This document shows, piece by piece, positions 1 through 19,587 of a stretch of 64,000 nt of DNA (within the stretch, counting starts at the first letter, position 1; each line of letters begins with the position of its first letter). The DNA comes from a virus (lineage: Duplodnaviria; Heunggongvirae; Uroviricota; Caudoviricetes): IMG/VR virus record IMGVR_UViG_3300025896_000021; one strand, written 5' to 3'. The notes beneath the pieces were generated by a model, which saw only the letters and a list, made by a program, of their open reading frames with translations, did no database searches and was not told the origin of the DNA. The position numbers and the translations under genes are program-made.

Positions 1-47
1 TGGTTTTCAAGGCCAGTCGCAGGACCATCCCCGCTGCATTACTCTCC
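1..47 (-). tRNA. tRNA-Ser(UGA), 5' part only (runs off window)
   Basis: Minus strand GGAGAGT...CTGGC-CT-TGA-AA-ACCA; variable and T arms lie outside the window. Confidence 0.75.
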
Positions 48-53
48 ATTTGT

Positions 54-110
54 TGGTGGTAGCTCGCTTTGCATCTCATGAAAACGCAAAGGGTCATGAC
101 TCCGACTACC
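54..110 (-). ncRNA. 57-nt tRNA-like mini RNA with acceptor stem, A-CCA end and one long hairpin capped by CAU
   Basis: GGTAGT pairs with GCTACC-A-CCA; internal CTTTGCGTTTT-CAT-GAGATGCAAAG hairpin; spaced like a unit of the tRNA array. Confidence 0.55.
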
Positions 111-115
111 GTAAT

Positions 116-236
116 TGGCCCCGTCTGGGGGAATCGAACCCCCGTTTCGTCCTTGACATGGAATGTTGTATATTGCTGACTGCATCCTTGACAGGATGAC
201 CTTTTATACGTGTGCTAACCACTACACTAAGACGGG
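116..236 (-). tRNA. tRNA-Asp(GUC) interrupted by a 46-nt insert (162-207) in the anticodon stem
   Basis: Acceptor CCCGTCT/AGACGGG-G-CCA, D arm, T arm GGGGG-TTCGATT-CCCCC; removing 162-207 restores CGTCC-AT-GTC-AA-GGACG and a 75-nt cloverleaf. Confidence 0.8.
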
Positions 237-241
237 AAACT

Positions 242-320
242 TGGTACCCTGCCTCGGACTCGAACCGAGAGAACTCTTCCTTTTGAGAGAAGCGACTTTG
301 CCAGATTTGTCCAGCAGGGC
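242..320 (-). tRNA. tRNA-Leu(CAA), short variable loop
   Basis: CTTCT-CT-CAA-AA-GGAAG arm, GTTCGAGTC T loop, A-CCA. Confidence 0.88.
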
Positions 321-329
321 ATAAAACTT

Positions 330-405
330 TGGGGTGTCGTACGGGATTCGAACCCGTACTAAGAGATTCACAATCTCTGGTGCTAACCTTTACACTAACA
401 ACACC
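330..405 (-). tRNA. tRNA-His(GUG) with G-1
   Basis: AGAGA-TT-GTG-AA-TCTCT; G-1:C73; CCA. Confidence 0.93.
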
Positions 406-415
406 ATATAACTAT

Positions 416-489
416 TGGTCTCCGATGCAAGAATCGAACTTGCGCTCCTTGGTCCCAAACCAAGAGTGATTCCATTTCACCAATCGGAG
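416..489 (-). tRNA. tRNA-Pro(UGG) copy 1
   Basis: CTTGG-TT-TGG-GA-CCAAG; C1:G72, A73, CCA. Confidence 0.92.
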
Positions 490-497
490 ATAAATTT

Positions 498-575
498 TGG
501 TCTGCGCTGGAGGATTCGAACCTCCGACCCCTCACTTCCAAGGCGAGAACTCTGACCAGACTGAGCTAAACACAG
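498..575 (-). tRNA. tRNA-Pro(UGG) copy 2 (different body, A37)
   Basis: CTCGC-CT-TGG-AA-GTGAG; GGTTCGAATCC; CCA. Confidence 0.92.
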
Positions 576-583
576 ATGAATTT

Positions 584-657
584 TGGTGGAGCTCCGGGGG
601 ATCGAACCCCGATGACTAACGTGCAAGGCTAGCATAATCCCATTATATGAGAACCCC
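584..657 (-). tRNA. tRNA-Ala(UGC)
   Basis: CTAGC-CT-TGC-AC-GTTAG; G3:U70 pair; A-CCA. Confidence 0.92.
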
Positions 658-663
658 AATTGT

Positions 664-807
664 AGGTTTTTGAGAGGCTACCTATCCTTGTTGAAGGGAC
701 TCAATAGTTTGTCTCGTATGGAGGAGGTCTTGCATCTTTCACGTTAAACACGTGCTTCTCTTGCTGCACCGCTACTTGCGACTCGACTCCTACGTCTATC
801 TCAAAAC
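664..807 (-). ncRNA. Unidentified ~140-nt multi-stem RNA in the tRNA array
   Basis: Closed by TTTTGAGA/TCTCAAAA; inner stems CGTA-GGAG/CTCC-A-TACG and CACGT/ACGTG; no ORF in the track; fills a slot between tRNA units. Confidence 0.5.
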
Positions 808-808
808 T

Positions 809-882
809 TGGCCCCTGAGATCACCGTCGAAAGTGACATTCCCAACTATTAACTAGATTGCGCGGTCTAGTCAAACTCAGAG
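809..882 (-). ncRNA. 74-nt tRNA-like RNA lacking a normal D arm/anticodon arm pair
   Basis: Acceptor CTCTGAG/CTCAGGG-G-CCA; T-like arm TCACT-TTCGAC-GGTGA; a single 9-bp hairpin TTGACTAGA-CCGCGCAA-TCTAGTTAA. Confidence 0.6.
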
Positions 883-888
883 ATAATT

Positions 889-963
889 TGGTACCTAGTG
901 TAGGACTCGAACCTACGACATTCCGCTAATCGGGCAGACGTTCTTCCTCTGAACTAACTAGGC
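889..963 (-). tRNA. tRNA-Ile(GAU) with atypical loop (C33, U37)
   Basis: TCTGC-CC-GAT-TA-GCGGA; normal D and T arms; A-CCA. Confidence 0.85.
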
Positions 964-971
964 ATATTGTT

Positions 972-1046
972 TGGTGGATGTAAGTAGATTTGAACTACTG
1001 ACCTGCTCCGTATGAAGGAGATGCACTACCGCTGTGCTATACATCC
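972..1046 (-). tRNA. tRNA with CAU anticodon (elongator Met or Ile2)
   Basis: CTCC-TT-CAT-AC-GGAG; G1:C72 paired so not initiator; A-CCA. Confidence 0.88.
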
Positions 1047-1051
1047 ATGAT

Positions 1052-1125
1052 TGGTGCCCCATGACAGAATTGAACTGCCGTATCCTGATTACAAAACAGG
1101 CGTAATACCGTTATACGAAAAGGGC
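1052..1125 (-). tRNA. tRNA-Thr(UGU)
   Basis: CCTGT-TT-TGT-AA-TCAGG; G1-C72, C2-G71; CCA. Confidence 0.9.
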
Positions 1126-1131
1126 TAAAGT

Positions 1132-1206
1132 TGGCGCCATGGACGAGAATCGAACTCGCATAGAACGGATAGACAATCCGGTGCATTACCAGTCTGCTAC
1201 CATGGC
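1132..1206 (-). tRNA. tRNA-Asp(GUC), uninterrupted, U37
   Basis: CGGA-TT-GTC-TA-TCCG; G73; CCA. Confidence 0.9.
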
Positions 1207-1214
1207 ATAAATTT

Positions 1215-1288
1215 TGGTGCTCTAACGTAGAATCGAACTACGATATCTGTCATACCAAGACAGTGTTCTTCCATTAAACTATAAGAGC
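1215..1288 (-). tRNA. tRNA-Thr(GGU)
   Basis: CTGTC-TT-GGT-AT-GACAG; CCA. Confidence 0.92.
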
Positions 1289-1295
1289 ATGAATA

Positions 1296-1361
1296 ACAGG
1301 ATGCAGTTTCTTTTCAAAGATAAAAGTTTTGAATTGATTTAATTTTGCAGGATGCATCCTA
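1296..1361 (-). ncRNA. Stem-closed element AGGATGC...GCATCCTG enclosing an anticodon-like loop (CT-TTG-AA)
   Basis: Terminal AGGATGCA/TGCATCCT helix; both halves resemble the tRNA-Asp insert at 162-207. Confidence 0.55.
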
Positions 1362-1365
1362 AAAC

Positions 1366-1442
1366 TGGTGCGGGGTACAGGGTTCGAACCTGCGACCTGT
1401 AAGTTGGCAACCTACTGCTCTACCAAACTGAGCTAACCACGC
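1366..1442 (-). tRNA. tRNA-Gly(GCC)
   Basis: GTAGG-TT-GCC-AA-CTTAC; GCG/CGC acceptor top; A73. Confidence 0.92.
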
Positions 1443-1450
1443 ATTGTATC

Positions 1451-1527
1451 TGGTGCGACCGGAGAGATTCGAACTCCCGACTCCTAAGTTCGTAGCCTAG
1501 TACTCTATCCAACTGAGTTACGGTCGC
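1451..1527 (-). tRNA. tRNA-Arg(ACG)
   Basis: CTAGG-CT-ACG-AA-CTTAG; A20 in D loop; CCA. Confidence 0.94.
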
Positions 1528-1534
1528 ATTATAT

Positions 1535-1620
1535 TGGTGGAGCAGATAGGGTTCGAACCTATACAGCAGTACTGTCCTCCGGGTTACAGCCGGGAGCCCT
1601 TCCTCTCAGGCGTCTACTCC
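1535..1620 (-). tRNA. tRNA-Tyr(GUA)
   Basis: CCGG-CT-GTA-AC-CCGG; long variable arm CAGTACTG; A-CCA. Confidence 0.9.
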
Positions 1621-1711
1621 ATATTAACTCGGCGGTGCGAAACCAGCTGCACACTTACGCATCTTAGCTTCTCGTTCCTAGGAAACTTACGCTTGGGTCA
1701 TCGCCTTGACT

Positions 1712-1786
1712 TGGTACTCAGTAGGGGAGTCGAACCCCTCTCTGGAAATTGAAAGTATCCTGACCTAACCGATAGTCGAACTGAGT
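1712..1786 (-). tRNA. tRNA-Glu(UUC)
   Basis: GGATA-CT-TTC-AA-TTTCC; GGGGTTCGACTCCCC; CCA. Confidence 0.9.
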
Positions 1787-1825
1787 GTAAAATTGTTGAT
1801 TAACCGGAGTGTAATAAATACGTGC

Positions 1826-2530
1826 ATGAAGGCACTTGATATATTATACACCCCACTTGATACTCCATCTGTTCCTAAAACAGATATTACTAAACTGCTA
1901 TCTTGGGCAGATTCTTATCGTACTACACAGCACCATCCTAATCGACTGGATGCGAGTAAAATTAAAGAAGTCAGTAGCACTTATCCCTGGAACTTAGTAT
2001 ATCCTAGAATCAATGATAACTGGTGCCATGACTTTAATATAGAATTTCCAGAGCTTGCAGATTTTTTTAGTTCTGCTTATAAAATACGTGAATCAGAAAT
2101 AAACAATGTAGTATTATTACCTGTTCGTTCTGACTTCGCCGGTTTAGGATTTTGGCATAGCGATCCAGATACTGCTGGATTACGCTGCTATATTGAAAAT
2201 CAAGAAGAAGACAATAATTTTCTACTAATAAGACCCACTATCATACCATATGATAGTAGACCAGGATTTGGCATTCTAGATCCTAACTTCAGTGAAACTC
2301 CGTTACAGAATGTAACACTGAGCGCAAAACTGCGTGAACCTAATCAAACATTTTATTTAAATAATGTTAGAGCAGTACATGCAGTTAACACACCGACTGT
2401 CGGAGCATTACGAATCGCAGTTATCGTTGCAGCCGATATTACAAAAGTAAGAGACCGCATTAGTAGCTTGGTAGTAGAGTCTGCTAAAAAATATAGCGAC
2501 TACGCACTATACTGGAAGCAACCAACTTAA
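1826..2530 (+). CDS. Putative 2OG-Fe(II) oxygenase/cupin-fold protein, antisense inside the tRNA array
   Basis: FWHSD...LNN..AVHAVN (HxD...H triad); start moved to ATG 1826, 5 nt after ATAAATA (1814-1820). Confidence 0.6.
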   Translation: MKALDILYTPLDTPSVPKTDITKLLSWADSYRTTQHHPNRLDASKIKEVSSTYPWNLVYPRINDNWCHDFNIEFPELADFFSSAYKIRESEINNVVLLPVRSDFAGLGFWHSDPDTAGLRCYIENQEEDNNFLLIRPTIIPYDSRPGFGILDPNFSETPLQNVTLSAKLREPNQTFYLNNVRAVHAVNTPTVGALRIAVIVAADITKVRDRISSLVVESAKKYSDYALYWKQPT

Positions 2531-2533
2531 AAC

Positions 2534-2611
2534 TGGCAGGGGTAATTGGATTCGAACCAATGATGACGATTTCAAAGACCGTTGCCTTGGGCCAGACTAG
2601 GCGATACCCCA
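2534..2611 (-). tRNA. tRNA-Gln(UUG), first tRNA of the array
   Basis: ACGGT-CT-TTG-AA-ATCGT; G73; CCA. Confidence 0.92.
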
Positions 2612-2621
2612 ACAATATATA

Positions 2622-2900
2622 ATGTGCGTACTTGGACCTTCACAGGGTCAATAATTTTCCTCGCACACGCTATTCTGAAATTCACTAAACTACTTAGGCT
2701 GCGATAGGAGCCATTGTTCATAGAGTGAATTTTAGAATAGCGTGATGTATCTTTCAACATCCACGCTATGATAGAGTTAATACTCTACCCAGAAGTCTTA
2801 CTAGTGCATTACCGCTACACGTTCATGTATTCTGTCCGCCCGTTTACAACATGTTTATAGTGCATTGTCAGGACCTCGTTTCCTGGGCAGGGTTACTGCT
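2622..2900 (-). ncRNA. Structured RNA region upstream of the first tRNA
   Basis: 21-bp inverted repeat 2666-2686/2724-2744; hairpins at 2623-2667 and 2772-2787; junction CTGCCC/GGGCGG with CAGGA-AACGAGG-TCCTG at ~2835-2890. Confidence 0.55.
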
Positions 2901-2919
2901 CTAAATCCACACTAATTTT

Positions 2920-3060
2920 TTATGCTAGTTGTTTTCTAGCTTTTACTGACTGACCCTTGTTACGCTCTACCTTCTGTAAGATCAATTGCTTGAACTGTTC
3001 AGGAGTTAGAGTATTCTCCTTGAGCCAATCAGATTTTTTATTCTTATCTGATTGTAACAT
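2920..3060 (-). CDS. Small basic hypothetical protein (46 aa, MLQSDKNKKSDWLKENTLTPEQFKQLILQKVERNKGQSVKARKQLA)
   Basis: Open frame below the ORF-track cutoff, downstream of promoter 3152-3180, GGA upstream. Confidence 0.4.
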   Translation of the reverse strand: MLQSDKNKKSDWLKENTLTPEQFKQLILQKVERNKGQSVKARKQLA

Positions 3061-3079
3061 AAAATCCATTTACTGTCAA
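3051..3079 (-). promoter_or_regulatory. sigma70-type promoter
   Basis: TTGACA-17 nt-TACAAT. Confidence 0.8.
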
Positions 3080-3151
3080 AATTCTTTTGTTGTATCTTTA
3101 CAACATCTTCTTATTCAATGAAGCCTTTTTACTTGCTTCTTTAATGTCTCT

Positions 3152-3180
3152 AGTATAACAGAATCACCATTTACTGTCAA
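3152..3180 (-). promoter_or_regulatory. sigma70-type promoter
   Basis: TTGACA-17 nt-TATACT; shares CCATTTACTGTCAAA with promoter 3051-3079. Confidence 0.82.
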
Positions 3181-3194
3181 ATTCTTTCTACCAC

Positions 3195-3231
3195 AAAACA
3201 AAAAACCCCTGAGACTTTGCAATCCCAGGGG
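3195..3231 (-). terminator. Intrinsic terminator (attenuator)
   Basis: CCCCTGGGA-TTGCAAAG-TCTCAGGGG followed by TTTTTTGTTTT. Confidence 0.88.
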
Positions 3232-3293
3232 CTTCATAAAACTTGTTGAAGTATTACAATTAGTTGTAACTACCTCGTCCTATGAACCCCTGG
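3225..3293 (-). promoter_or_regulatory. Antiterminator hairpin, mutually exclusive with terminator 3195-3231
   Basis: CCAGGGGTTCATAGGAC/GTTTTATGAAGCCCCTGG (17 bp) stacked on GAGGTA-G-TTACAA/TTGTAA-TACTTC (12 bp); the CTAA loop holds the leader stop codon. Confidence 0.75.
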
Positions 3294-3433
3294 AGCATTC
3301 TGCCCTGATCACTAGATCCGCGAATACTTGTCGGCGCTGTTGAATAATTCCCCTCAAAGGCTGCTAACATGGCTATCGTCACGGGTGACCATAGTCCTGT
3401 ATGTTTCAGCGATTGACAGTTAATATTCATCAT
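3260..3433 (-). CDS. Putative attenuator leader peptide, 57 aa (MMNINCQSLKHTGLWSPVTIAMLAAFEGNYSTAPTSIRGSSDQGRMLQGFIGRGSYN)
   Basis: Translated by hand; lies between promoters and terminator; 3' end overlaps the antiterminator; contains all 20 amino acids. Confidence 0.7.
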   Translation of the reverse strand: MMNINCQSLKHTGLWSPVTIAMLAAFEGNYSTAPTSIRGSSDQGRMLQGFIGRGSYN

Positions 3434-3509
3434 AGTCTTTTATTTAGTCCTGGTTTAAAAATACTGCAAATTAAGCTACTTTTTTCGCTCTTTTGCAGTT
3501 CATGTATGT

Positions 3510-3538
3510 ATTATAGCACCGATTGTATTAGTTGTCAA
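3510..3538 (-). promoter_or_regulatory. Perfect-consensus sigma70 promoter upstream of the leader ORF
   Basis: TTGACA-17 nt-TATAAT with extended -10 TG. Confidence 0.9.
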
Positions 3539-3608
3539 CAACTATTTTCATCAGCTTACCCATAACACAAAAATTCTTTTCTGAATCGATTTCTCAATTC
3601 ATGTGTGA

Positions 3609-3637
3609 AGTATAACAGAGAATGGATTAAACGTCAA
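3609..3637 (-). promoter_or_regulatory. sigma70-type promoter
   Basis: TTGACG-17 nt-TATACT. Confidence 0.75.
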
Positions 3638-4247
3638 CCTTTGTGTTGCCCAAAACGTATTGATACGTGTCTTCAGCAACCTTAACCCAATCAGGATCGA
3701 GGTCTAAATTAGGGTGTTGGAAGTCACTGGCTAACACGCATCTCGCTTTTGTTAGTATACTGATACCTTGAATTTCTGTCAAGGCTAGATACCCCAGAGT
3801 TCGATTCCTTACACATATATCCCATGCAACACCAAACACGTACACATTTTTTATCTCAGGATTAAGAGACAAATAATATTCAAGTTGCCATGCCCAATGC
3901 ATTGCTATTTGAAATTTTGAAGGGTTATTGTAATGTAGTACAGTAGGATGGGTTTGTTCAAGTGGATAGGTAGTGTCCCTTGCCATATGCAATCGATGCA
4001 CATGATTCAATTCTTTTATTTTTCTTAGTGGATTATTCGGTCCATACAATGCGTGATGATTGAGGTACCACACTGAGCTACTATGAGTAAGCTCCCTCTT
4101 GCAGTTATATGAAGCAAGCACAATAGTGCCAACCGCCGGGTCGTTAGTTACGCAATCAATTATATCATTATATAGTTTTGGTTCTATTTCAGGTGGGATA
4201 TCCCAGCAATCAATCAGTATAGCCAGACTAGGTTCATTAAGCATCAC
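3627..4247 (-). CDS. Isochorismatase/cysteine-hydrolase-like protein
   Basis: AILIDCW N-terminal strand and VFGVAWDICV motif. Confidence 0.55.
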   Translation of the reverse strand: MMLNEPSLAILIDCWDIPPEIEPKLYNDIIDCVTNDPAVGTIVLASYNCKRELTHSSSVWYLNHHALYGPNNPLRKIKELNHVHRLHMARDTTYPLEQTHPTVLHYNNPSKFQIAMHWAWQLEYYLSLNPEIKNVYVFGVAWDICVRNRTLGYLALTEIQGISILTKARCVLASDFQHPNLDLDPDWVKVAEDTYQYVLGNTKVDV

Positions 4248-4248
4248 A

Positions 4249-4280
4249 TATTTATAGGGTTACCCGATAGCTTATAAATA
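4249..4280. promoter_or_regulatory. Divergent pair of T4-late-type promoters
   Basis: TATAAATA on minus (4249-4256) and plus (4273-4280), each a few nt from a start codon. Confidence 0.8.
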
Positions 4281-4284
4281 AAGC

Positions 4285-5391
4285 ATGTCAGAGAATTTTT
4301 GCAGGTACCTTACCAACCAATACCGTTTTGTCTACGGAGTACTTCAGCCCTGTTGCTGGTACACTAAGACACAAGACTTGTCAGCGGGCCAAGAAGCAGT
4401 TGACGCATACAAGCAGGAACTATACGCTATCAAAGATTGGGTACCCGAGTGTAACTTTTGCAAAGAACGTGAAGATAAAGGGATGCATAGTCCCAGGATA
4501 GACGCCAACAAAGATCAAACCATAGAGTGGGTAGACGGTGAAGGTGTCAACTTAGAGTTCCAAATTGATAAGGATTGCAACGGTGCATGTCTTATATGCG
4601 GTAGTTGGAACAGTACAACTTGGGAACAATACACTACTCAAACTATCAACAAAAAAGTTTTCACCATCAAAAGCAACGAAGACAACGTTGAAGTTTGGTT
4701 AAAGCAAATACATGAGACTGTGAGGTTTGATAAAGTCAGACGCATTACGTTCTTGGGAGGCGAGCCACTTAGAACAGATACCCATTTTAGAATACTGCAA
4801 GAAGTTAAAAAAGTACAAGACTTGAAAAAGGTTCGGGTAACTTACATCACGAATGGCAGTGCAAAGCCTACTCCAGAGCAGCTAGAGTTATGGTCTGAGC
4901 TATCGCATCTTAACTTGCATTTTAGCTTAGACGCAATTGGTGAGCACTTTAATTATCTGCGCTGGCCGTTGCAATGGTCACACGTAGAAAAGAACTTACG
5001 ATATATCATTGACTTAGACTTACCTAATGTAAGTATCACTGGTAGCTATACACTGACTCCGTTCAATATCTTTTACCATGATAGATACGATGCGTGGGCG
5101 CATGAGTTCTTTAAGGGTACTAAGTATAGCCCAAAGAACATATTTAGACAACCCTTCATGGCTAACGGAGTTATGAGTTTAGCTGCGTTGCCGCCGGTGT
5201 TGGCAATGATAGTTAGGAAGAAGTATGCAATATCTGAGATCACCGATAATGATCACACGGTTGATAAATGCATTCCCGGTTATACCAGAGCATCATACGA
5301 TGAGTTTATGAAACACATTGAATATCACGACGGGCATAGAAAACTAGCATGGCGTGAAGTTTTTCCAGAGATAGAAAAGTATTTTAAATAA
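4285..5391 (+). CDS. Radical SAM protein with N-terminal Cys-rich (twitch-like) domain
   Basis: CNGACLIC, GGEP, TNGS, FSLD; N-terminal FC..PCC..CNFC. Confidence 0.88.
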   Translation: MSENFCRYLTNQYRFVYGVLQPCCWYTKTQDLSAGQEAVDAYKQELYAIKDWVPECNFCKEREDKGMHSPRIDANKDQTIEWVDGEGVNLEFQIDKDCNGACLICGSWNSTTWEQYTTQTINKKVFTIKSNEDNVEVWLKQIHETVRFDKVRRITFLGGEPLRTDTHFRILQEVKKVQDLKKVRVTYITNGSAKPTPEQLELWSELSHLNLHFSLDAIGEHFNYLRWPLQWSHVEKNLRYIIDLDLPNVSITGSYTLTPFNIFYHDRYDAWAHEFFKGTKYSPKNIFRQPFMANGVMSLAALPPVLAMIVRKKYAISEITDNDHTVDKCIPGYTRASYDEFMKHIEYHDGHRKLAWREVFPEIEKYFK

Positions 5392-6572
5392 TGGCTAATA
5401 AATTTTGCAGGCAACTAAGTAACGGTTATAAAATCAATGTACAGGGTGACAAACTGTTATGGAGCCCTTGTTGCTTCTACACAAAGAAAACTGACATGTC
5501 CAATGCCATCGAACTGAAACGTGACATGGAATATGCACACAATGCAACAGGATGGTTACCTGAATGTAACTCATGCAGGAACATGGAAGAATCAGGAGTA
5601 GAAATACTAAAGCCAAGACTAAATGCGAATCAAATGATATCGGCTGAATCAGTGCCCGGTGATTGCGTTAACTTAGAAGTTAGCTTTGATACCAAATGCA
5701 ATGCAGCTTGTCTCAGTTGCGGTAGTTATTGCAGCACTACTTGGGCTAAGTTTGAGAAAAAACATAATCTAAATATAAGCGGAGTCGTTCCAAAAGTAAT
5801 TAAACTTAGCAATTCATTTGAACGAAAGATTGCTGAGGTGCAGTATAAGATAAAGCTAACCGATGATGATACTGATACAAGTGATTTGTTATTTCGTAAA
5901 CTCATAAACACAGTTCCGCTAGATAAGCTAGAGACTATCTTTATCATGGGCGGTGAACCATTCTATACCAAGTCTCATATCAAATTACTTAGACACTTAA
6001 AAGACGTACATCCAGACCTGAGCAAGGTCAGCATACGATATCAATCTAATGGTAGTATCTTCCCGAGTGATGAAGTATTAACGTTATGGGAAGACTATAA
6101 GAACATTGTATACGGTGCTAGCTTTGATGGCATTGGAGAACGATTTGACTATCTACGTTGGCCACTTAAGTGGTTTCGGTGTGGGCCCATACTGAAAAGA
6201 ATAATGACAGAGACTAGGGCCCAGCTACACGTGAACTGTACTATAAGCCCATTGAATATTTTATATGTTAACGATCTAGAAGATTGGTTGAAGGAAAATA
6301 TACCAGCGCATAGAATGAAGAACTTATCTAATTTAATTAGGCCCAATGCATGTATGGGTACTATGGATCTAAAATATGCTAATCAGAAACTAAGAGATAA
6401 GGTGTTTGAAAAATACGGGGAAGAGCATGACATAAGCAAAATGCTGTCTAGCTTAGAGATGTATGACAATGCATCCCCGATGTTCAACTATATCGAACAG
6501 ATGGATAAGATACGCCGTACTGATTGGCGTAAGACTTTTCCTGATATAGTTGATTGTTATTCAAACGTGTAG
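5391..6572 (+). CDS. Radical SAM protein, tandem paralogue of 4285-5391
   Basis: CNAACLSC, GGEP, SNGS, YLRWPLxW; N-terminal FC..PCC..CNSC. Confidence 0.88.
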   Translation: MANKFCRQLSNGYKINVQGDKLLWSPCCFYTKKTDMSNAIELKRDMEYAHNATGWLPECNSCRNMEESGVEILKPRLNANQMISAESVPGDCVNLEVSFDTKCNAACLSCGSYCSTTWAKFEKKHNLNISGVVPKVIKLSNSFERKIAEVQYKIKLTDDDTDTSDLLFRKLINTVPLDKLETIFIMGGEPFYTKSHIKLLRHLKDVHPDLSKVSIRYQSNGSIFPSDEVLTLWEDYKNIVYGASFDGIGERFDYLRWPLKWFRCGPILKRIMTETRAQLHVNCTISPLNILYVNDLEDWLKENIPAHRMKNLSNLIRPNACMGTMDLKYANQKLRDKVFEKYGEEHDISKMLSSLEMYDNASPMFNYIEQMDKIRRTDWRKTFPDIVDCYSNV

Positions 6573-7183
6573 GCCCAGGCAGCAATATCTACTGCAAACA
6601 CTTCTGCCACTTTTAATTTGTCAGCATCAGTGTAAAGAACTGAATACCCTTCACATGCAGCGTGTGCTTCTGAAAGATAATCTACATTATCAACAGTGGC
6701 AAACTCTGGAATGGTTCTAACATCTACATTAAAATTATCGAAGTCAAGTAAGTAACTTACTGTTAGCTTGCCGTCTCCAGACATATAGAATGGAGCTGCA
6801 TTAACTGCATTCTGCGAAGCGTAATTTGGATTCTCCGGGCTCAAGTATAAGTCTAAGAATTCAGTAAGAGACTTACAACCAGTGTAGTCTACGTAGTTCG
6901 GGCCCATTTTCCATTGAGCATCTAGGACTAGATTAGTCCTAGTCTTATAAAACAATACCATTCGTTTGAACGGGTTGATCCGCACCGCAATAGTCTTGAA
7001 TTCATTTGAGGTTAAGTCAAATATTTCATGGATCTCACTGATCGGGTGATTGTCTTGTTCACCCAACAAATCGTCGGCTGAAACAAAATATTCTAAGTGA
7101 GTACTACATGCCTGCACGAATGGAAGCATGTATTCTCTTGGGATTGCATATTGCAATAGGGTGTAATGGGTCATCATAATCAT
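6557..7183 (-). CDS. Sulfotransferase-family-like protein
   Basis: IAVRINPFKRMVLFY resembles the 3'-PB motif; C-terminal YTD..K.KVAEVFAVDI..W.Y.F; 5'-PSB motif degenerate. Confidence 0.45.
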   Translation of the reverse strand: MIMMTHYTLLQYAIPREYMLPFVQACSTHLEYFVSADDLLGEQDNHPISEIHEIFDLTSNEFKTIAVRINPFKRMVLFYKTRTNLVLDAQWKMGPNYVDYTGCKSLTEFLDLYLSPENPNYASQNAVNAAPFYMSGDGKLTVSYLLDFDNFNVDVRTIPEFATVDNVDYLSEAHAACEGYSVLYTDADKLKVAEVFAVDIAAWAYTFE

Positions 7184-8541
7184 AGTCCTTTAAAGGTGTT
7201 CCAAAATCTAACAGAGTAGTACTCTCGTAGTTTGCCCTCTTTGACAAAGGCAATGTTTTTATCTATTCTGTATTTATTCTCTTTCCACCGTTCTATCATG
7301 TTTGTGGAAGTTAACATGTTTAAATTCAAGTCGATGGCACTATTAATCCGTGTTGCAGGGTCTTCTATCGAGTCATACGAATGATCTACTACATCATCAA
7401 ACATATCTATACCTATATTACGCAGAAAATCAACCGTACCCGGACTAGAAATCATAATAGGGAAGTTCGCCCCGTATATAAAGTGCAGTGTCTTTTCAGT
7501 GATATTGAAGCTACGCTCATTGTAACTAGTCTCTGATACAAATTCAACTAGACTACTATGGTACTTGTCTTGCAGGCTGTGTTTAAAGTTGGTGAGATTA
7601 TCGTTGTGGGTGGTATAGATGTTCTTGGAATCTTCTACTTTGTTTTCTTTTAATAGCGAATATCGATTAAACCCGGTGTTGGCTATATCATAGCCACTGT
7701 CACTAGCATAGTCGTATGCTATAGCGTCAGACAATACTGTATTGTTTGGTAATGACAGATAGCTAATGTTACCGAAGTTATCTAACTCTCGCCCGTATAA
7801 TGCTGATACCAAGTATGTTCTATGATGGCGCGGGCCTCGGTTCAACGATATAAAGTTCATTGCATTAATATCTTTTTCAATACTAGGCGCATGTTGCATA
7901 TACATTGATAACTGATTAGTAACATCACCGCCCATTGGTATGATAGTGCAGTTAGAATTAACAATCTCTTTATCTAAGTTCTCAAGTGAGGTAACTAGTA
8001 TAAAGCGTTTGTTTGGATAGTAGTCAAACAAGTTACTGAAATATATACTGAGTTCGGGCATAGAGCTAGTCCAAGAATTGCTAGTTGATATCCTAAAGTG
8101 ATCCTTGACAAACAATACTATCGTATCATTCACACACGCTTCCTGAATCATGTCCTCCATCATACCCCGATCCATTAGATTTTCTACATAAGGTGCATAG
8201 TGTTTACAGAATGCATCATACAATTCTAAAGTACTAGCTGTTTCAGTAAACTCACAGTACAACGGGTACATATCATCACGACTATTGAGATGTCGTTTCT
8301 TTCCCATAATCATCGATGACCGAAACTCTATGAAGTCTGTGAATCTAGGTAGCTGTCTCGGGCTAGTACTGGCTAAGCTAGTGTTACTGTACGAGAAAGA
8401 TGTTGGATTACTTAACGGGCCCGTCCATAGATAGACAAAGCTAGCATCACTTAAGCCCAGTTCTTTCTTCTTCCCGAACACTTGGAAGAACAGTTTCTTA
8501 CTGTAGTCGTCAAATGGAGGGGAACTAATAATCTTAAGCAT
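7180..8541 (-). CDS. Putative glycosyltransferase-like phage protein
   Basis: FISLNRGPRHHR and VSET...ITEKT...FPI...LRNIGIDMFDDVVDHSYD motifs. Confidence 0.5.
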   Translation of the reverse strand: MLKIISSPPFDDYSKKLFFQVFGKKKELGLSDASFVYLWTGPLSNPTSFSYSNTSLASTSPRQLPRFTDFIEFRSSMIMGKKRHLNSRDDMYPLYCEFTETASTLELYDAFCKHYAPYVENLMDRGMMEDMIQEACVNDTIVLFVKDHFRISTSNSWTSSMPELSIYFSNLFDYYPNKRFILVTSLENLDKEIVNSNCTIIPMGGDVTNQLSMYMQHAPSIEKDINAMNFISLNRGPRHHRTYLVSALYGRELDNFGNISYLSLPNNTVLSDAIAYDYASDSGYDIANTGFNRYSLLKENKVEDSKNIYTTHNDNLTNFKHSLQDKYHSSLVEFVSETSYNERSFNITEKTLHFIYGANFPIMISSPGTVDFLRNIGIDMFDDVVDHSYDSIEDPATRINSAIDLNLNMLTSTNMIERWKENKYRIDKNIAFVKEGKLREYYSVRFWNTFKGL

Positions 8542-8566: not shown

Positions 8567-10117
8567 ATGCGATTTAATCCCTCAGACTATATCACAGTGT
8601 TCTTGAGCTATGACGAACCTAACTGTGAAGAAAACTATCAACATTTACTAACACTTAACCCGAATGCACTTAGAGTGCATGGCGTTGAAGGTAGTGATAC
8701 TGCACACAAAGCATGTGCTAAACTAGCAACTACCAGCCGTGTTGTCATCATAGACGGTGACAACTGGGTAAGAGACAATTTCTACACTACTGATATTGAA
8801 CTAGAGTATACGGACGAGGACGTTATCAGCTACTCAGGATACAACATAGTGAACGGTACACAATACGGTAACGGTGGAATCAAGTGCTGGCCTGTTAAGC
8901 ACATCAATGAGATGCAGACACACGAGAATGGCACAGAGGATAGCATTGACTTTGTACTGAACAAGTACATAGAGTTAAACAACATAGGTAGCGACTTACG
9001 TATCAACGGTAGTCCATTACAAGCATGGCGCGCAGGATTCCGTGAAGTAATTAAACTAACACGTGATGATAACGTTGACTGGCGCAACTATGATAGATTA
9101 TGGCGCTGGATGCATGTTGGATCAGACATTGAGAACGGTGTCTACTCTATGTACGGAGCTAGACTAGCATACTACATGCTTAAGGTTAACAAATGGGATG
9201 GCTCGCACAATGTCAAGAACTTTGACTTCTTAAACAAACTATATGAGCATGTTACTACATCACTGGCTAACACGGTATTAGAAGAAGCCAATGTATTGGG
9301 TACACTTATCGGAGAGAAGACTAATGATAAGAATATCTCTATAGCACTGCCCGAATGGAACAGCAATGAGTATCGTAGACGTATTGGCAACCCAGTACGT
9401 AGCCCCGTAAACTATATTCCAGAGTACGATATCGTATTCATACACAATAATGAGTTAGGTGCAACTGAGAACTATAACAGAATCAAAGAACGATTCCCAC
9501 GAGCTAAAGAGTTAAGTGGGGTTACGGGCATACACAATGCACACATACAAGCATCAAAACTATGTAGAACGGATTACTTCTGGGTAGTAGATGGGGATGC
9601 AGTTATCAATAATGACTTTGACTTTACATACAGTATCAACTTCTATGAGCAACCCACTGTCAGAGTCTTTCGTTCTATCAACCCAGTAAACAAGCTAGTA
9701 TACGGTCATGGTGCTGTAAAGTTACTACCCCGTCTAGCTACACTAAAAATGAGTAAGGGTAATGTAGATATGACAACAAGTATCAGCACACTATACGAAC
9801 CCATTAACATCATAAGCAACATACACAAGTTTAACACGGATGCATTCAGTGCATGGCGTACCGCGTTTAGAGAATGCGTGAAACTATCTAGCCAAGTGAT
9901 AGACAGACAACAATCTAGTGAAACAATAGACAGATTGTACACATGGTGTAGTGTTGGGTCAGAAGAACAGTACGGTCGTGAAACGATTAAGGGCGCACTA
10001 ACGGGAAAAGTATACGGAGAAGTTAACCGTAACAGTATAGAAAAGCTAGCAAAAATTAACAACTATGAATGGTTAAGAAGTGAATATGACAAACAATTTC
10101 AGCAACATCCCGTTTAA
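8567..10117 (+). CDS. Tandem two-domain GT-A-like glycosyltransferase
   Basis: Two homologous halves, each VF..Y/N.E...ENY...GV.G...AH..., DGD motif, YG.G..K, AWR..FRE; start moved to ATG 8567. Confidence 0.65.
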   Translation: MRFNPSDYITVFLSYDEPNCEENYQHLLTLNPNALRVHGVEGSDTAHKACAKLATTSRVVIIDGDNWVRDNFYTTDIELEYTDEDVISYSGYNIVNGTQYGNGGIKCWPVKHINEMQTHENGTEDSIDFVLNKYIELNNIGSDLRINGSPLQAWRAGFREVIKLTRDDNVDWRNYDRLWRWMHVGSDIENGVYSMYGARLAYYMLKVNKWDGSHNVKNFDFLNKLYEHVTTSLANTVLEEANVLGTLIGEKTNDKNISIALPEWNSNEYRRRIGNPVRSPVNYIPEYDIVFIHNNELGATENYNRIKERFPRAKELSGVTGIHNAHIQASKLCRTDYFWVVDGDAVINNDFDFTYSINFYEQPTVRVFRSINPVNKLVYGHGAVKLLPRLATLKMSKGNVDMTTSISTLYEPINIISNIHKFNTDAFSAWRTAFRECVKLSSQVIDRQQSSETIDRLYTWCSVGSEEQYGRETIKGALTGKVYGEVNRNSIEKLAKINNYEWLRSEYDKQFQQHPV

Positions 10118-11072
10118 TCGAATAGTTAAGTTCGGGCAAGCTAACATGCTTGACATGGACTTGTTCACTACTAGCTGGATACTGGGCAGATTCTGTAACT
10201 ACAGTTGCAGCTATTGCTGGCCATATGCTAACAGCAATGTCCCCGATCATCAGGAACTATCTATATACAAGCAGACGATTGACAGCATTAAGCAACAAGC
10301 TAGACGCAATGGGTTTAACAAGTTTCATTGGTCTTTCAGTGGGGGCGAACCCACAGCGTACAAACACTTACTAGAGCTTACAAAGTACTTAGATGAGGGT
10401 CCGGTAGAGGGTTATCAGAGTGTCCACATGACTACAAATCTATCACCCAGTGTTGCATGGTGGCTACGTTGGGAGAAAGCTACGGAGATGCTACAGCGTA
10501 GAAGTCTTACAGCTAGCTATCATAGTGAGTTTGCTAAAGAGAATGAGTTCGGGGATAAGATACTAGCATTGATGCAGGAGCAGGTTTACGTCACAGTTAA
10601 TCAAGTTATGGTCCCCGAAAATTTTTTTGAGAGCTATGAAAGACTGAACCGTTTTCATGCTAGGGGAATCAATGTTACATTGAAGCCACAGTCTGACCCG
10701 ACCGCTAGTCACATAGTCTCAGGGTACACTGACGAGATGATACAGATCATGCGCAATGGATTCCCACAGCAAGCTAATGACGAACCCGTACTACAAGTAA
10801 AACTAATAGACGACAATAACAAGATATGGTGGCTGGATCAAGCAGAACGCTTCAATAGCTTTGGGTTTAACAAGTTCAGTGGATGGATGTGCAACAGTGG
10901 CTATCAGGGTATAGTTATACGTAGTGACGAAGTAAAGCGTAGCTATAGTTGCGGAGACTTACCTTTAGGGTCACTAAGCGGCGGCTTTACTATCTTTGAC
11001 AAGCCTGTGATATGTACAACACAGTCATGCGTAAGTAGTGCCGACAGTAAGATACCTAAAGAGAAGATATGA
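10086..11072 (+). CDS. Radical SAM protein with C-terminal SPASM/twitch-like Cys cluster
   Basis: CNYSCSYC, SGGEP, TTN; WMCNSG..C..CTTQSC. Confidence 0.9.
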   Translation: MTNNFSNIPFNRIVKFGQANMLDMDLFTTSWILGRFCNYSCSYCWPYANSNVPDHQELSIYKQTIDSIKQQARRNGFNKFHWSFSGGEPTAYKHLLELTKYLDEGPVEGYQSVHMTTNLSPSVAWWLRWEKATEMLQRRSLTASYHSEFAKENEFGDKILALMQEQVYVTVNQVMVPENFFESYERLNRFHARGINVTLKPQSDPTASHIVSGYTDEMIQIMRNGFPQQANDEPVLQVKLIDDNNKIWWLDQAERFNSFGFNKFSGWMCNSGYQGIVIRSDEVKRSYSCGDLPLGSLSGGFTIFDKPVICTTQSCVSSADSKIPKEKI

Positions 11073-15755: not shown

Positions 15756-16482
15756 TGTTGACGGGGTTAGTATACCCTTTGAGAACGATGTGCAGTCTAT
15801 AGCTATATCATTATCCGGCGGTGCGGACTCTGCATTGCTAGCATATCTATTGTGCGAACACATTGAAGCAAATAAGCTACCCATTGACGTGTTCATTATA
15901 TCACATATACGCATGTGGAAGACTAGACCCTGGCAGAAGTACAATCAATTAGATGTATATGGATATTTGCAGAAACGTTTCCGTACTATACACTTTACAC
16001 GCTATGAGAACTTTATCCCACCAGACATTGAATGGGGTAACAAGGGTGCTACACTAATAGATGAGTACGGTAAAGAATCGTCCGGGGATATCATTGAGAT
16101 ACGTGCATTCGCCGAGTATATATGTCATCAAGAAGATATTGACGTATACTATAACGCTGTTACACGCAATCCCCGTAACGTTGACTTCAAGGGTATGGAA
16201 AAGCGTGACATTGAGCCTACAGAAGATAACAAGCATCTAAGACTAATGACACACATGGGGCGCATTGCTGTACACCCTTTTAGATTCATTGAGAAGTCAT
16301 GGGTAATTAAACAGTATAAAGACAAAGATATACTATCATTACTAAACAATACACGTAGCTGTGAGGGAGAGTTTGATAATGTTAACTATATCACATATAG
16401 CATAGGAGACTTTGTTCCGTTATGCGGAGAATGCTTCTGGTGCAAAGAAAGACAATGGGCGTTAGAACAAAATGAGTTGTAA
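15742..16482 (+). CDS. QueC-like PP-loop ATPase
   Basis: SLSGGADS PP-loop; TRSC...CGECFWCKER zinc motif. Confidence 0.7.
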   Translation: MNEFNVDGVSIPFENDVQSIAISLSGGADSALLAYLLCEHIEANKLPIDVFIISHIRMWKTRPWQKYNQLDVYGYLQKRFRTIHFTRYENFIPPDIEWGNKGATLIDEYGKESSGDIIEIRAFAEYICHQEDIDVYYNAVTRNPRNVDFKGMEKRDIEPTEDNKHLRLMTHMGRIAVHPFRFIEKSWVIKQYKDKDILSLLNNTRSCEGEFDNVNYITYSIGDFVPLCGECFWCKERQWALEQNEL

Positions 16483-17743
16483 TAAAAACAGTAAAACATT
16501 CTGTATGCATCCTTTCACAGGGTTAGCTACACGAGAAGACGGGGCCATTACTGCTTGCTGTCGTAGTCATCCAGTGGGGTTCATTGACAAAGATAGCTTA
16601 GAGGGTATCTGGAACAATGATACTATGAAGCGTATACGCAAGCAAGTGTTAAGTGATGAGCGTCCCCCAGAGTGTGAGCCATGTTTCTCACTAGAAGATC
16701 AAGGTGTTGAGTCATTGCGTCAGCGTCATATCACTGCACGTATTCCAGAGAGTCGCATTAGCTTATACCCCAATGCATTAGACACACTGAATGACGATTA
16801 CTCAATGCCCTTTGAGATTCCTACTATGGAACTTAAATTAAACAATCTATGTAACCTTAAGTGTCGTATGTGTCATCCTATGGATAGTACAAGCTGGAAC
16901 GATTGGGGTACTGTTAAAGACTTCTACAAGCGTGAGGGCAACATCATGTATGCTATAGTAGAGGAACATAACTTAGAGAACAAACCCTTCTTAGATAAGT
17001 TTCAAGACAATCCCCAGTGGTGGGAGTCATTGAGTAAGCTATTGCCATACTTCCGTAGAGTAGAGTTTGCTGGGGGCGAACCGTTGATGGATCCTCAACA
17101 CTATCGCATTCTAGACATGCTTAGTGAGTATGGACATCAGATTGAGATCAAGTATGCTACCAATCTTTCTATGCTGGGTAAGGGTTCACGCAACATCTAT
17201 GAGTACTGGCCTAAGTTTAAGTCTGTAGCCGTTAACGTTTCCATCGACGGCATGAGAGACACTTATGAGTACATTCGAGGCAATGGTGATTGGGACGTTT
17301 TAATCGCCAATATAAAGGAAATACAGGGTATTAAAAATATATCTCGCATCGTTGGCGCTGTCACCGTGCAAGTGTCTAACGTATTAATTCTAGACAAGAT
17401 GATTGAATACTTTTTAAACGACCTTGGCATCATCTTTCACACCCATCGTGTTGAATATCCTAAGCTATTAAGTGCTCAGGTACTGCCATTACCGTTGCGA
17501 AACCTGGCGATAGACCGATTAAAAGCCATTAAAAAACACGTCCCTTTCTATCGATTGTGCGTAGAAGAGCCTAGAATCATACCATACACTCTGCTCCAGA
17601 TAGATGACAATATCAACTATTTGGAGGCACGTGAACAAATGGATAAATGGGACGATTGTGTAGCGTTTAATCACCAATTAGATTTGAATAGAAACCAATT
17701 AAGTTTCGAAACTGTAACCCCAGAGTTCAAGCCCTATGTATAA
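16472..17743 (+). CDS. Twitch-domain radical SAM protein
   Basis: CNLKCRMC, AGGEP, SIDG; N-terminal FCMHPF..CC..CEPC. Confidence 0.92.
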   Translation: MSCNKNSKTFCMHPFTGLATREDGAITACCRSHPVGFIDKDSLEGIWNNDTMKRIRKQVLSDERPPECEPCFSLEDQGVESLRQRHITARIPESRISLYPNALDTLNDDYSMPFEIPTMELKLNNLCNLKCRMCHPMDSTSWNDWGTVKDFYKREGNIMYAIVEEHNLENKPFLDKFQDNPQWWESLSKLLPYFRRVEFAGGEPLMDPQHYRILDMLSEYGHQIEIKYATNLSMLGKGSRNIYEYWPKFKSVAVNVSIDGMRDTYEYIRGNGDWDVLIANIKEIQGIKNISRIVGAVTVQVSNVLILDKMIEYFLNDLGIIFHTHRVEYPKLLSAQVLPLPLRNLAIDRLKAIKKHVPFYRLCVEEPRIIPYTLLQIDDNINYLEAREQMDKWDDCVAFNHQLDLNRNQLSFETVTPEFKPYV

Positions 17744-18665: not shown

Positions 18666-19587
18666 TTTGATAGCAAGTGGTTGACGTTATAGTAGGGTTA
18701 TACTTAGCTATAAAGTCTTTGTCATAGATATTAAACTTATAGTCTAGGTTATATAAGCGTTCATTGCATGTTCCGGATAAACTTCCATCTTTGTTAATGT
18801 ATAGAGTATCTACGCCTAGATTGCAATCCCAATGATAGAAGTTACTATAGTTATTCAATGATAGATAGTTATTGCTTACTGTCTTAACGGTTCCGTCATT
18901 AAAGTATAACGTGGGGTCTTCATTGATAGATTTCTTACATTCATAGTAATAACGTGCATCGGGCAAGCGTTTATTCGTATTACTTAGATATTGTTTCTGT
19001 TCCGTTGTATAATTGACTGTACTATGCAGTATTTCATTAGAGGATATACTATATTGATTCTTACTGTGTTTAAGTTCTTCTATGATGTTTAAGCACTTAT
19101 CCCAATGATTAGGATCCATTAACACAATACAATTAGCCCATACATTCTTTTCGTATAATATATCAGCTACACTTATAATATGCTTTGTATCTATAGTTTC
19201 ATGGTGGCAACTTAACATAACGTGGTCAAAGTATTGTCCATATTCATCCCACCATCTAAGTGTTCTAGAGCCATTAGTTGACATACTGATAACTGCATTA
19301 TACTTATCCTTGAAGTGTTTAGTAAACTCTCCAAAGTCTCTCCATAATGTAGGTTCTCCGCCCACTATATGCAATAGTATTTGCTTCTTTCCTAGTGTTT
19401 TCTTATAGTATTCTATTAGATGTGATAGATTGTCGATAATACTATCTAATGTAGGCCAAGGTGTTATTCCTTCTTTACTACCCGGGAAGCAGTACCAGCA
19501 GTTATAATTGCACTTATCCCCGAGAAACAACTCTATTCTAAGTAAGTCTTTAGGTTGATTAGAATCTATTCGTATTAGATCATTCAT
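18604..19587 (-). CDS. Radical SAM protein with C-terminal SPASM-like domain
   Basis: CNYNCWYC, GGEP, STNG; WDCNLG..C..CYQTSCHC. Confidence 0.92.
   Translation of the reverse strand: MNDLIRIDSNQPKDLLRIELFLGDKCNYNCWYCFPGSKEGITPWPTLDSIIDNLSHLIEYYKKTLGKKQILLHIVGGEPTLWRDFGEFTKHFKDKYNAVISMSTNGSRTLRWWDEYGQYFDHVMLSCHHETIDTKHIISVADILYEKNVWANCIVLMDPNHWDKCLNIIEELKHSKNQYSISSNEILHSTVNYTTEQKQYLSNTNKRLPDARYYYECKKSINEDPTLYFNDGTVKTVSNNYLSLNNYSNFYHWDCNLGVDTLYINKDGSLSGTCNERLYNLDYKFNIYDKDFIAKYNPTITSTTCYQTSCHCAPEQRATKVIQIVKL

Follow-up and report, generated by a model that had tools for sequence, protein, structure and literature searches.

The closest described counterparts of the element reported here are the attenuators of amino-acid operons (trpL, hisL, leuL, thrL, pheL and ilv), which carry a short translated leader. 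In attenuators of the trpL type, the 5' arm of the terminator has an alternative pairing partner, an upstream segment that extends into the end of the leader open reading frame (ORF), and the position of the ribosome selects the hairpin that forms, the terminator being the thermodynamically stronger structure and the choice between the two kinetic. A comparable architecture is present in a 64,000-nucleotide (nt) stretch of DNA (hereafter the window) from the IMG/VR virus record IMGVR_UViG_3300025896_000021, assigned to Caudoviricetes, in which a leader unit at positions 3195-3538, with all parts on the minus strand, precedes an array of phage tRNA genes. This leader has the features of the trpL class, namely an apparently translated leader ORF, an intrinsic terminator before downstream genes and a mutually exclusive antiterminator overlapping the end of the ORF. 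The unit is probably an attenuator of transcription that is mediated by the ribosome and whose leader ORF monitors decoding capacity in general, not one amino acid. An attenuator of this kind had been proposed in an earlier note on the same DNA, and the proposal gains support from the family-wide presence of the ORF, the alternative pairing, the terminator, the complete amino-acid coverage and the link to tRNA arrays, from which we infer the response to a stalled ribosome.

The main departure from the trpL type lies in the message itself, which has no run of a single codon and instead contains every amino acid, mostly once or twice. The leader is also long (44-58 codons), its stop codon lies inside the antiterminator hairpin, and its targets would be phage tRNAs and a non-coding RNA, not biosynthetic enzymes. 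Possible counterparts of the 1:2 anti-antiterminator, or of a pause hairpin that would synchronise ribosome and polymerase, are two hairpins in the ORF body, a long one enclosing the Trp codon and one at the codons for Ser-Ile-Arg-Gly (SIRG), the stems of which visibly differ between subfamilies. The terminator is the sole barrier only in 25 of 78 loci, a promoter following it in the other 53 and in the window.

The nearest general sensor is the upstream ORF (uORF) of mycobacterial whiB7, which is likewise followed by a terminator/antiterminator and is switched on by defects in amino-acid synthesis, tRNAs and synthetases, the composition of the uORF setting what is sensed (PMC10274678). The whiB7 uORF is enriched in alanine, is otherwise freely variable and controls a transcription factor (PMC10274678), whereas the composition here is held at all 20 amino acids and the output would be a phage tRNA array; alanine makes up 7.2% of residues in the family and 8.3% in the phage proteins, so that there is no whiB7-like enrichment. 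T-box riboswitches also report tRNA supply through a terminator/antiterminator choice in a leader RNA, but they bind one uncharged tRNA directly and without translation, whereas the sensor here would be a translated ORF. Antibiotic-responsive leaders of the ermC, cat, bmrCD and vmlR type share the principle that a ribosome stalled on a short ORF remodels the downstream RNA and switches expression on. Those leaders respond to drug-bound ribosomes at specific peptide motifs, whereas here the coverage of all amino acids is conserved and there is no link to a resistance gene.

A leader family at the head of phage tRNA arrays

Relatives of the leader were collected by a protein-pattern scan (four viral loci), a protein search (24 peptides, P0001-P0024), a metagenome scan (18 loci) and an exact-match scan with the 15-mer AACCAGGACTAAATA from the 5' untranslated region (UTR). 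The last of these retrieved more than 120 viral contigs, some of 250-617 kilobases (kb), and a profile search found the whole element of ~360 nt on almost all of them. The family comprises ~125 uncultured viral and metagenomic loci with 104 distinct copies, and the element is kept in more than 100 uncultured freshwater phages. The loci were gathered by a nucleotide motif outside the ORF and therefore without selection bias on amino-acid composition.

The association with tRNA genes is strict. Wherever the downstream DNA extends for 1.5 kb or more, as it does in 56 distinct copies, a tRNA gene lies within the first 1.5 kb; the downstream tRNAs, 880 in all, share the strand of the leader without exception, and an upstream tRNA occurs in none of the 94 copies with upstream DNA, which bears out the link between leader and tRNA array that had been claimed for the window. 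The fragment of this phage encodes 42 tRNAs for all 20 amino acids, every one of them downstream of the leader. Phage tRNA arrays are widely discussed as sustaining translation when host tRNAs are degraded or cleaved. Full-text literature searches found no study on the regulation of such arrays, and literature searches found no description of this leader element.

Among 50,697 cultured phage records, megablast and blastn searches with the window region and two divergent members returned nothing relevant, the sole match being a promoter-like 60 nt in Lactococcus phage BK5-T. Rfam searches of window positions 1-6000 (E-values up to 1) and of four related loci (E-values up to 0.5) found tRNAs only, and at the same thresholds and over the same sequences the T-box covariance model had no match. 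The leader peptide has no Pfam or PHROGs match. A tmRNA, a T-box, a type I toxin mRNA and a 6S RNA were considered as candidate identities and dropped on the grounds of no model match, no full hydrophobic helix and different ORF properties.

Structure of the leader unit

Transcription of the leader would begin at promoter P1 (3510-3538, minus strand), which combines TTGACA, a 17-nt spacer with TG before the -10 box and TATAAT, a 12/12 match to the sigma-70 consensus; we infer a transcript start near 3503. The P1 hexamers are unchanged among close relatives, and even the most divergent members have a sigma-70-like P1, preceded by an A/T-rich stretch. The 5' UTR contains a hairpin (3463-3499, minus strand; CUGCAAA...UUUGCAG) that appears in minimum free energy (MFE) folds and of which both arms are altered together in loci L002 and L131 (CUAGAGA...UUUCUAG). 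It is followed by the best-conserved 15-mer of the element, AACCAGGACUAAAUA (= AACCAGGACTAAATA; 3441-3455, minus strand), whose conservation has to be read with the caveat that the family was partly gathered through this motif. The 15-mer ends 7 nt 5' of the AUG, is unpaired in the fold and keeps a spacing of 7-8 nt to the ATG in nearly all copies; it is probably the region where ribosomes load.

The leader ORF (3260-3433, minus strand) has 57 codons and a UAA stop, and the last of the 20 amino acids makes its first appearance at codon 42. No codon is repeated within codons 2-21, and the first 45 comprise 35 distinct ones; in the phage's own long ORFs, either figure is reached by just 0.2% of windows of equal length, a baseline that may have been lowered by a large, possibly repetitive gene of 5452 amino acids (aa).

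The end of the ORF and the sequence after it can adopt two mutually exclusive structures. Arm A of the antiterminator (3281-3293, minus strand) consists of CCAGGGG and UUCAUA within codons 47-51, an inner stem-loop (3245-3277, minus strand) holds the stop codon (3262-3260) in its CUAA apical loop, and arm B (3225-3238, minus strand; UAUGAA, G, CCCCUGG) can have as its partner either arm A, in the antiterminator, or arm C, in the terminator. Positions 3293-3225 fold as a single hairpin of 29 base pairs (bp) at -32 kcal/mol (z-score -6.2, 0 of 200 shuffles as good), the outer 7 bp of which join CCAGGGG (3293-3287) to CCCCUGG (3231-3225), that is, to the 5' arm of the terminator. The intrinsic terminator (3195-3235, minus strand) has a stem of 12-15 bp between 3235 and 3202 with a GCAA loop, arm C UCUCAGGGG (3214-3206) and then U6GU4, the T-tract reaching ~3195; its fold has -22.9 kcal/mol (z -5.7). 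These parts had been put forward in the earlier note as a perfect sigma-70 promoter at 3510-3538, a 57-codon ORF at 3433-3260 with the amino-acid and codon figures given above, a strong intrinsic terminator at 3195-3231, and a hairpin of ~29 bp at 3293-3225 that carries the UAA in its apical loop and sequesters the 5' arm of the terminator. Counting and folding confirm all of them.

Conservation of the alternative pairing

When RNAs ending at arm B were folded one by one, arm B paired with the end of the ORF in all 70 distinct sequences, in hairpins of 16-29 bp. Compared with shuffled ORF ends the antiterminator had a mean z of -4.2, with 97% of values below -2. Individual folding was used because arm A does not align in register between the subfamilies: an alignment of 52 full-length elements with MAFFT and RNAalifold recovered the terminator only, and column-wise counts of A:B pairs from that alignment are not meaningful.

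Arm B hardly varies in the family. Arm A has the core CC(N)GGG, which occurs in all three reading frames (36, 4 and 21 cases) and accordingly encodes PGS/PGT, SRG, LQG or ARG; because this core is kept in three frames with different amino acids, what is conserved in arm A is the RNA, for its pairing, and not the peptide sequence. Arms A and B show compensatory changes in L065 and L045, which have GGGGCUUC/GAAGCCCC where others have GGGGUUUC/GAAACCCC. Compensatory changes also occur in L083. In the terminator two pairs between arms B and C show compensatory changes, from CG to AU in six sequences and from UA to CG in two. The apical or inner stem occurs in 32 different sequences in the family, all of which fold, and each of the 81 distinct full-length copies with the start motif has a recognisable terminator.

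Arms A and B always flank the stop codon, with arm B beginning 23-36 nt 3' of it. From ribosome footprints, this distance is taken to be beyond the reach of a terminating ribosome. An excerpt of an earlier study reports repression of a terminator placed only a few bases behind a gene, and more efficient termination at greater distances (PMC4824070).

Translation of the leader ORF

An open frame of 44-58 codons runs from the same start in all 81 distinct full-length copies. In an alignment of six close relatives (A2), five insertions or deletions within the ORF are multiples of three, and the frame is disturbed for only a few bases by a -1/+1 pair around CCAGGGG; those observed outside the ORF are of 1-2 nt. 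Entropy at codon positions 1, 2 and 3 is 0.97, 0.90 and 1.18, highest at the third, and of the codon differences that involve a single base 43% are synonymous. Because the frame is kept in every copy, changes of length within the ORF of these relatives preserve it and third positions vary most, the leader ORF is, on comparative grounds, translated. The two parts that the earlier note expected homologous loci to share, the ORF and the alternative pairing, are thus present throughout, in 81 of 81 and 70 of 70 sequences, respectively.

Selection for complete amino-acid coverage

The set of 20 amino acids is complete in 58 of the 65 distinct peptides of 44-58 aa and short of one in the remaining seven, the 44-aa versions included. 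For one random sequence of phage composition the chance of containing all 20 is 0.4% at 44 aa and 2.6% at 57 aa; windows from actual proteins of this phage give 1% and 3.8%, respectively. The window peptide alone, with a chance of ~2.6-3.8%, is thus suggestive, and the significance comes from the family comparison. In a conservative null model, each column was re-evolved independently on the family tree with its own residue set and fitted rate, the window peptide standing at the root; a mean of 19 of the 65 tips (maximum 40) then had all 20 amino acids, and 58 was reached in none of 400 runs. The caveat, raised with the original proposal, that a 57-residue peptide can contain all 20 residues by chance is answered by this comparison (58 of 65 observed against 19 of 65).

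About 5.9 amino-acid types per peptide are present exactly once. Across lineages these single-copy residues occupy several columns (seven for Cys, six for His, six for Asp and seven for Val), and because they shift columns between lineages, losses have been made good elsewhere in the peptide. The coverage of all 20 amino acids is thus maintained by selection.

The position of the residues is also consistent with a sensor. In 63 of the 65 peptides all amino-acid types occur before arm A, and in 66 of 70 sequences the last new codon lies at least 7 nt 5' of arm A. The ribosomal helicase acts at about +11 from the P site, and from these two distances arm A would be left free to pair upon a stall. 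Matching of codons to anticodons is uninformative, as the 42 tRNAs of the phage read 53 of the 57 leader codons anyway and most related loci are truncated.

A short ORF can therefore be under selection for complete coverage as such, which provides a new criterion for finding regulatory small ORFs.

Region between the terminator and the tRNA array

Three further promoter sites lie past the terminator on the minus strand of the window: P2 (3152-3180; 11/12), ~20 nt past the terminator; P3 (3051-3079; 11/12), whose spacer holds the ATG of the next small ORF; and a promoter-like site (2729-2757; 10/12). The earlier note had cautioned that additional promoters past the terminator might make control partial, and these sites confirm the caution for the array of this phage.

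The arrangement differs in 25 of the 78 related loci, among them the most divergent members, which have no promoter of at least 10/12 between the terminator and the first tRNA and still have P1. In divergent members of this kind the terminator is followed directly, with no promoter between, by a second structured RNA and then by tRNA-Gln ~275 nt on. With P1 kept and no promoter past the terminator, a constitutive terminator would make no sense in these loci.

The small ORF (2920-3069, minus strand) lies between leader and tRNAs and encodes a basic protein of 49 aa, with tblastn matches in 37 loci and 64-82% identity among the 14 best matches listed. Its ATG is inside the spacer of P3 and, in L002-type loci, inside the sole downstream promoter, so that a full-length message needs upstream transcription, from P2 or by read-through of the leader terminator.

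The second conserved structured RNA (2612-2905, minus strand) lies directly 5' of the first tRNA, has a fold z of -2.3 and no Rfam match, and shows conserved blocks and covarying hairpins in 17 aligned loci. Its blocks include GGAAACGAGG, GCACUAUAAACA and AACGGGCGGACAG, and several of its hairpins have stems that differ between loci.

The first 15 genes of the tRNA array occupy 242-2611 (minus strand), beginning with tRNA-Gln (2611-2534), and the array continues past the start of the window. Within it, the opposite strand carries a 245-aa ORF (1793-2530, plus strand) between the genes for tRNA-Gln and tRNA-Glu; this ORF matches no family, and its sole homologue among the fetched loci is in L115, at 35% identity.

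Proposed mechanism

P1, a strong promoter, would give rise to a leader RNA whose start region is accessible and whose ORF of 44-58 codons is translated. As arm B is transcribed before arm C, the antiterminator would form first unless a ribosome occupied arm A or the inner stem. A ribosome keeping pace with RNA polymerase would reach the last codons, melt the hairpin and free arm B, whereupon the terminator would form and the P1 transcript would end at ~3195. A delay at any earlier codon, arising from shortage or damage of any tRNA or amino acid, would leave the antiterminator hairpin intact, and the polymerase would then read on past the terminator, through the small ORF and the second structured RNA and into the tRNA array. 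On balance the result would be a feedback that yields more phage tRNA when decoding is poor. In this phage, the three downstream promoters would supply a basal level, and the switch would add to transcription rather than gate it.

The evidence leans, a little less firmly, towards a class not yet described, a pan-amino-acid attenuator in which the ORF would serve as a complete test message, allowing a giant phage to gauge decoding capacity (tRNA loss, host-defence cleavage or starvation) and to raise the transcription of its own tRNAs. If true, this would be the first attenuator built as a general meter of translation capacity and would provide a feedback logic for phage tRNA supply. A sigma-70 promoter and an intrinsic terminator should work in laboratory bacteria, and, if the proposal holds, the element would be a compact sensor part for synthetic biology.

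Several observations weigh against this mechanism, some of which would fit other explanations of the unit. The peptide keeps motifs beyond mere composition (K-H, W, F and P-x-S-I-R-G), and P/T-S-I-R-G (window 3311-3331, minus strand) is almost invariant while its codons change synonymously (AGT/AGC, CGC/CGT, GGN). Such conservation at the amino-acid level is not needed by a pure composition sensor, and the peptide may have a role of its own, for example a nascent-chain effect or a separate function. Further, a promoter is found in the gap between terminator and tRNAs in 53 of the 78 related loci, mostly 10-37 nt past the terminator, and a strong promoter at this place, as in the window, is also what a simple, independent transcription unit would show. 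In phage early regions, units of promoter, small gene and terminator are commonly arranged in tandem. Both observations would suit an ordinary small early gene, in which P1, ORF and terminator make a 57-aa protein acting on tRNA or translation, while the hairpin stabilises the mRNA or extends the terminator. This explanation is unlikely, as a folded protein has no known reason to hold all 20 amino-acid types while its single Cys, His, Asp and Val shift columns, and the peptide matches no Pfam or PHROGs family. It also leaves aside that arm A persists whichever of the three frames it falls in and whatever amino acids it encodes, that the 5' arm of the terminator is always a partner of the ORF end and that the unit always heads a tRNA array, from which a constitutive terminator would cut P1 off in the 25 loci with no downstream promoter.

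The amino-acid-level conservation of SIRG, K-H and W would also suit an attenuator with another input or output, one that senses global translation arrest or the nascent peptide, with SIRG as an arrest sequence, or whose main targets are the second RNA and the 49-aa ORF rather than tRNA supply. A leader answering to many stresses has a precedent in the whiB7 uORF (PMC10274678). The dependence of the full-length 49-aa message on upstream transcription, in the window and in L002-type loci, and the position of the second RNA directly after the terminator in minimal members agree with such an output. This version is doubtful: a sensor built purely on an arrest peptide could do without complete amino-acid coverage, and the unit is strictly associated with tRNA arrays, the 49-aa ORF occurring in only 37 loci.

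Folding provides further arguments against the general sensor. When both structures are allowed together, the MFE state is the terminator plus a shortened hairpin (-37.2 kcal/mol); equilibrium thus favours termination, so that a working switch has to be kinetic, like that of trp. Folds of the whole leader predict for many members that arm B pairs not with arm A but with the CCAGG of the conserved 5' UTR motif (3447-3453), to which it is complementary (3225-3231). This pairing is possibly a third state, or a fold-back that closes the start region. In the long subfamily, to which the window belongs, arm A lies 25-31 nt before the stop codon, so that a ribosome on the stop covers the inner stem and not arm A; there it would act by opening the inner stem instead of covering arm A. 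With three promoters past the terminator, control of the array can only be partial in this phage. Coupling of transcription and translation is also assumed, in a phage whose genes lack Shine-Dalgarno sequences.

The whole 316-nt leader transcript is unusually structured (-107 kcal/mol, z -7.7), as are the 5' UTR and ORF body alone (z -3.3). The ~315-nt terminated transcript might itself be the product, a structured RNA of dual function that acts as a regulator, as a decoy or in processing or stability of the array, its folding or lifetime being tuned by translation. The extreme conservation of the 5' UTR motif and the pairing of arm B with its CCAGG would agree with this, and an excerpt of work on the small RNA rnTrpL, which derives from the Trp attenuator, offers a precedent for attenuator-derived small RNAs (PMC7968998). 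We nonetheless consider it quite unlikely, as it leaves unexplained the need for all 20 amino acids and their placement before arm A, has no Rfam family match and does not account for the mutually exclusive A:B and B:C pairings around an intrinsic terminator, which are the hallmark of a read-through switch.

Genomic context

The IMG/VR record that contains the window is 98,387 nt long with a completeness estimate of 27%, and the window therefore originates from a very large phage. The record encodes ribonucleotide reductase and virion and baseplate genes. One ORF of 5452 aa occupies 34337-50695 (minus strand), where G+C rises locally to 0.49-0.52 from ~0.40, and is followed by ORFs of 964, 1024 and 1875 aa, of which those of 964 and 1875 aa match virion/baseplate families. 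The upstream neighbour of the leader, a protein of 206 aa, has no Pfam or PHROGs match, and a scan with this neighbour gave no related loci. At least four proteins with radical SAM domains (4285-6572, 10080-11072 and 16472-17743, plus strand) are encoded in a plus-strand gene block adjoining the tRNA region, possibly a module for RNA or nucleotide modification.

The genes of the window lack Shine-Dalgarno sequences, and about one-third of the long ORFs listed have TAAATA or TATAAATA 4-12 nt 5' of the ATG, examples being the gene starts at 4285, 7180-8541, 19584-20984, 23713 and 3627-4247. This motif could be a start-site signal, or a T4-late-like promoter yielding leaderless mRNAs. The leader ORF shares the TAAATA start motif, at its fixed spacing of 7-8 nt.

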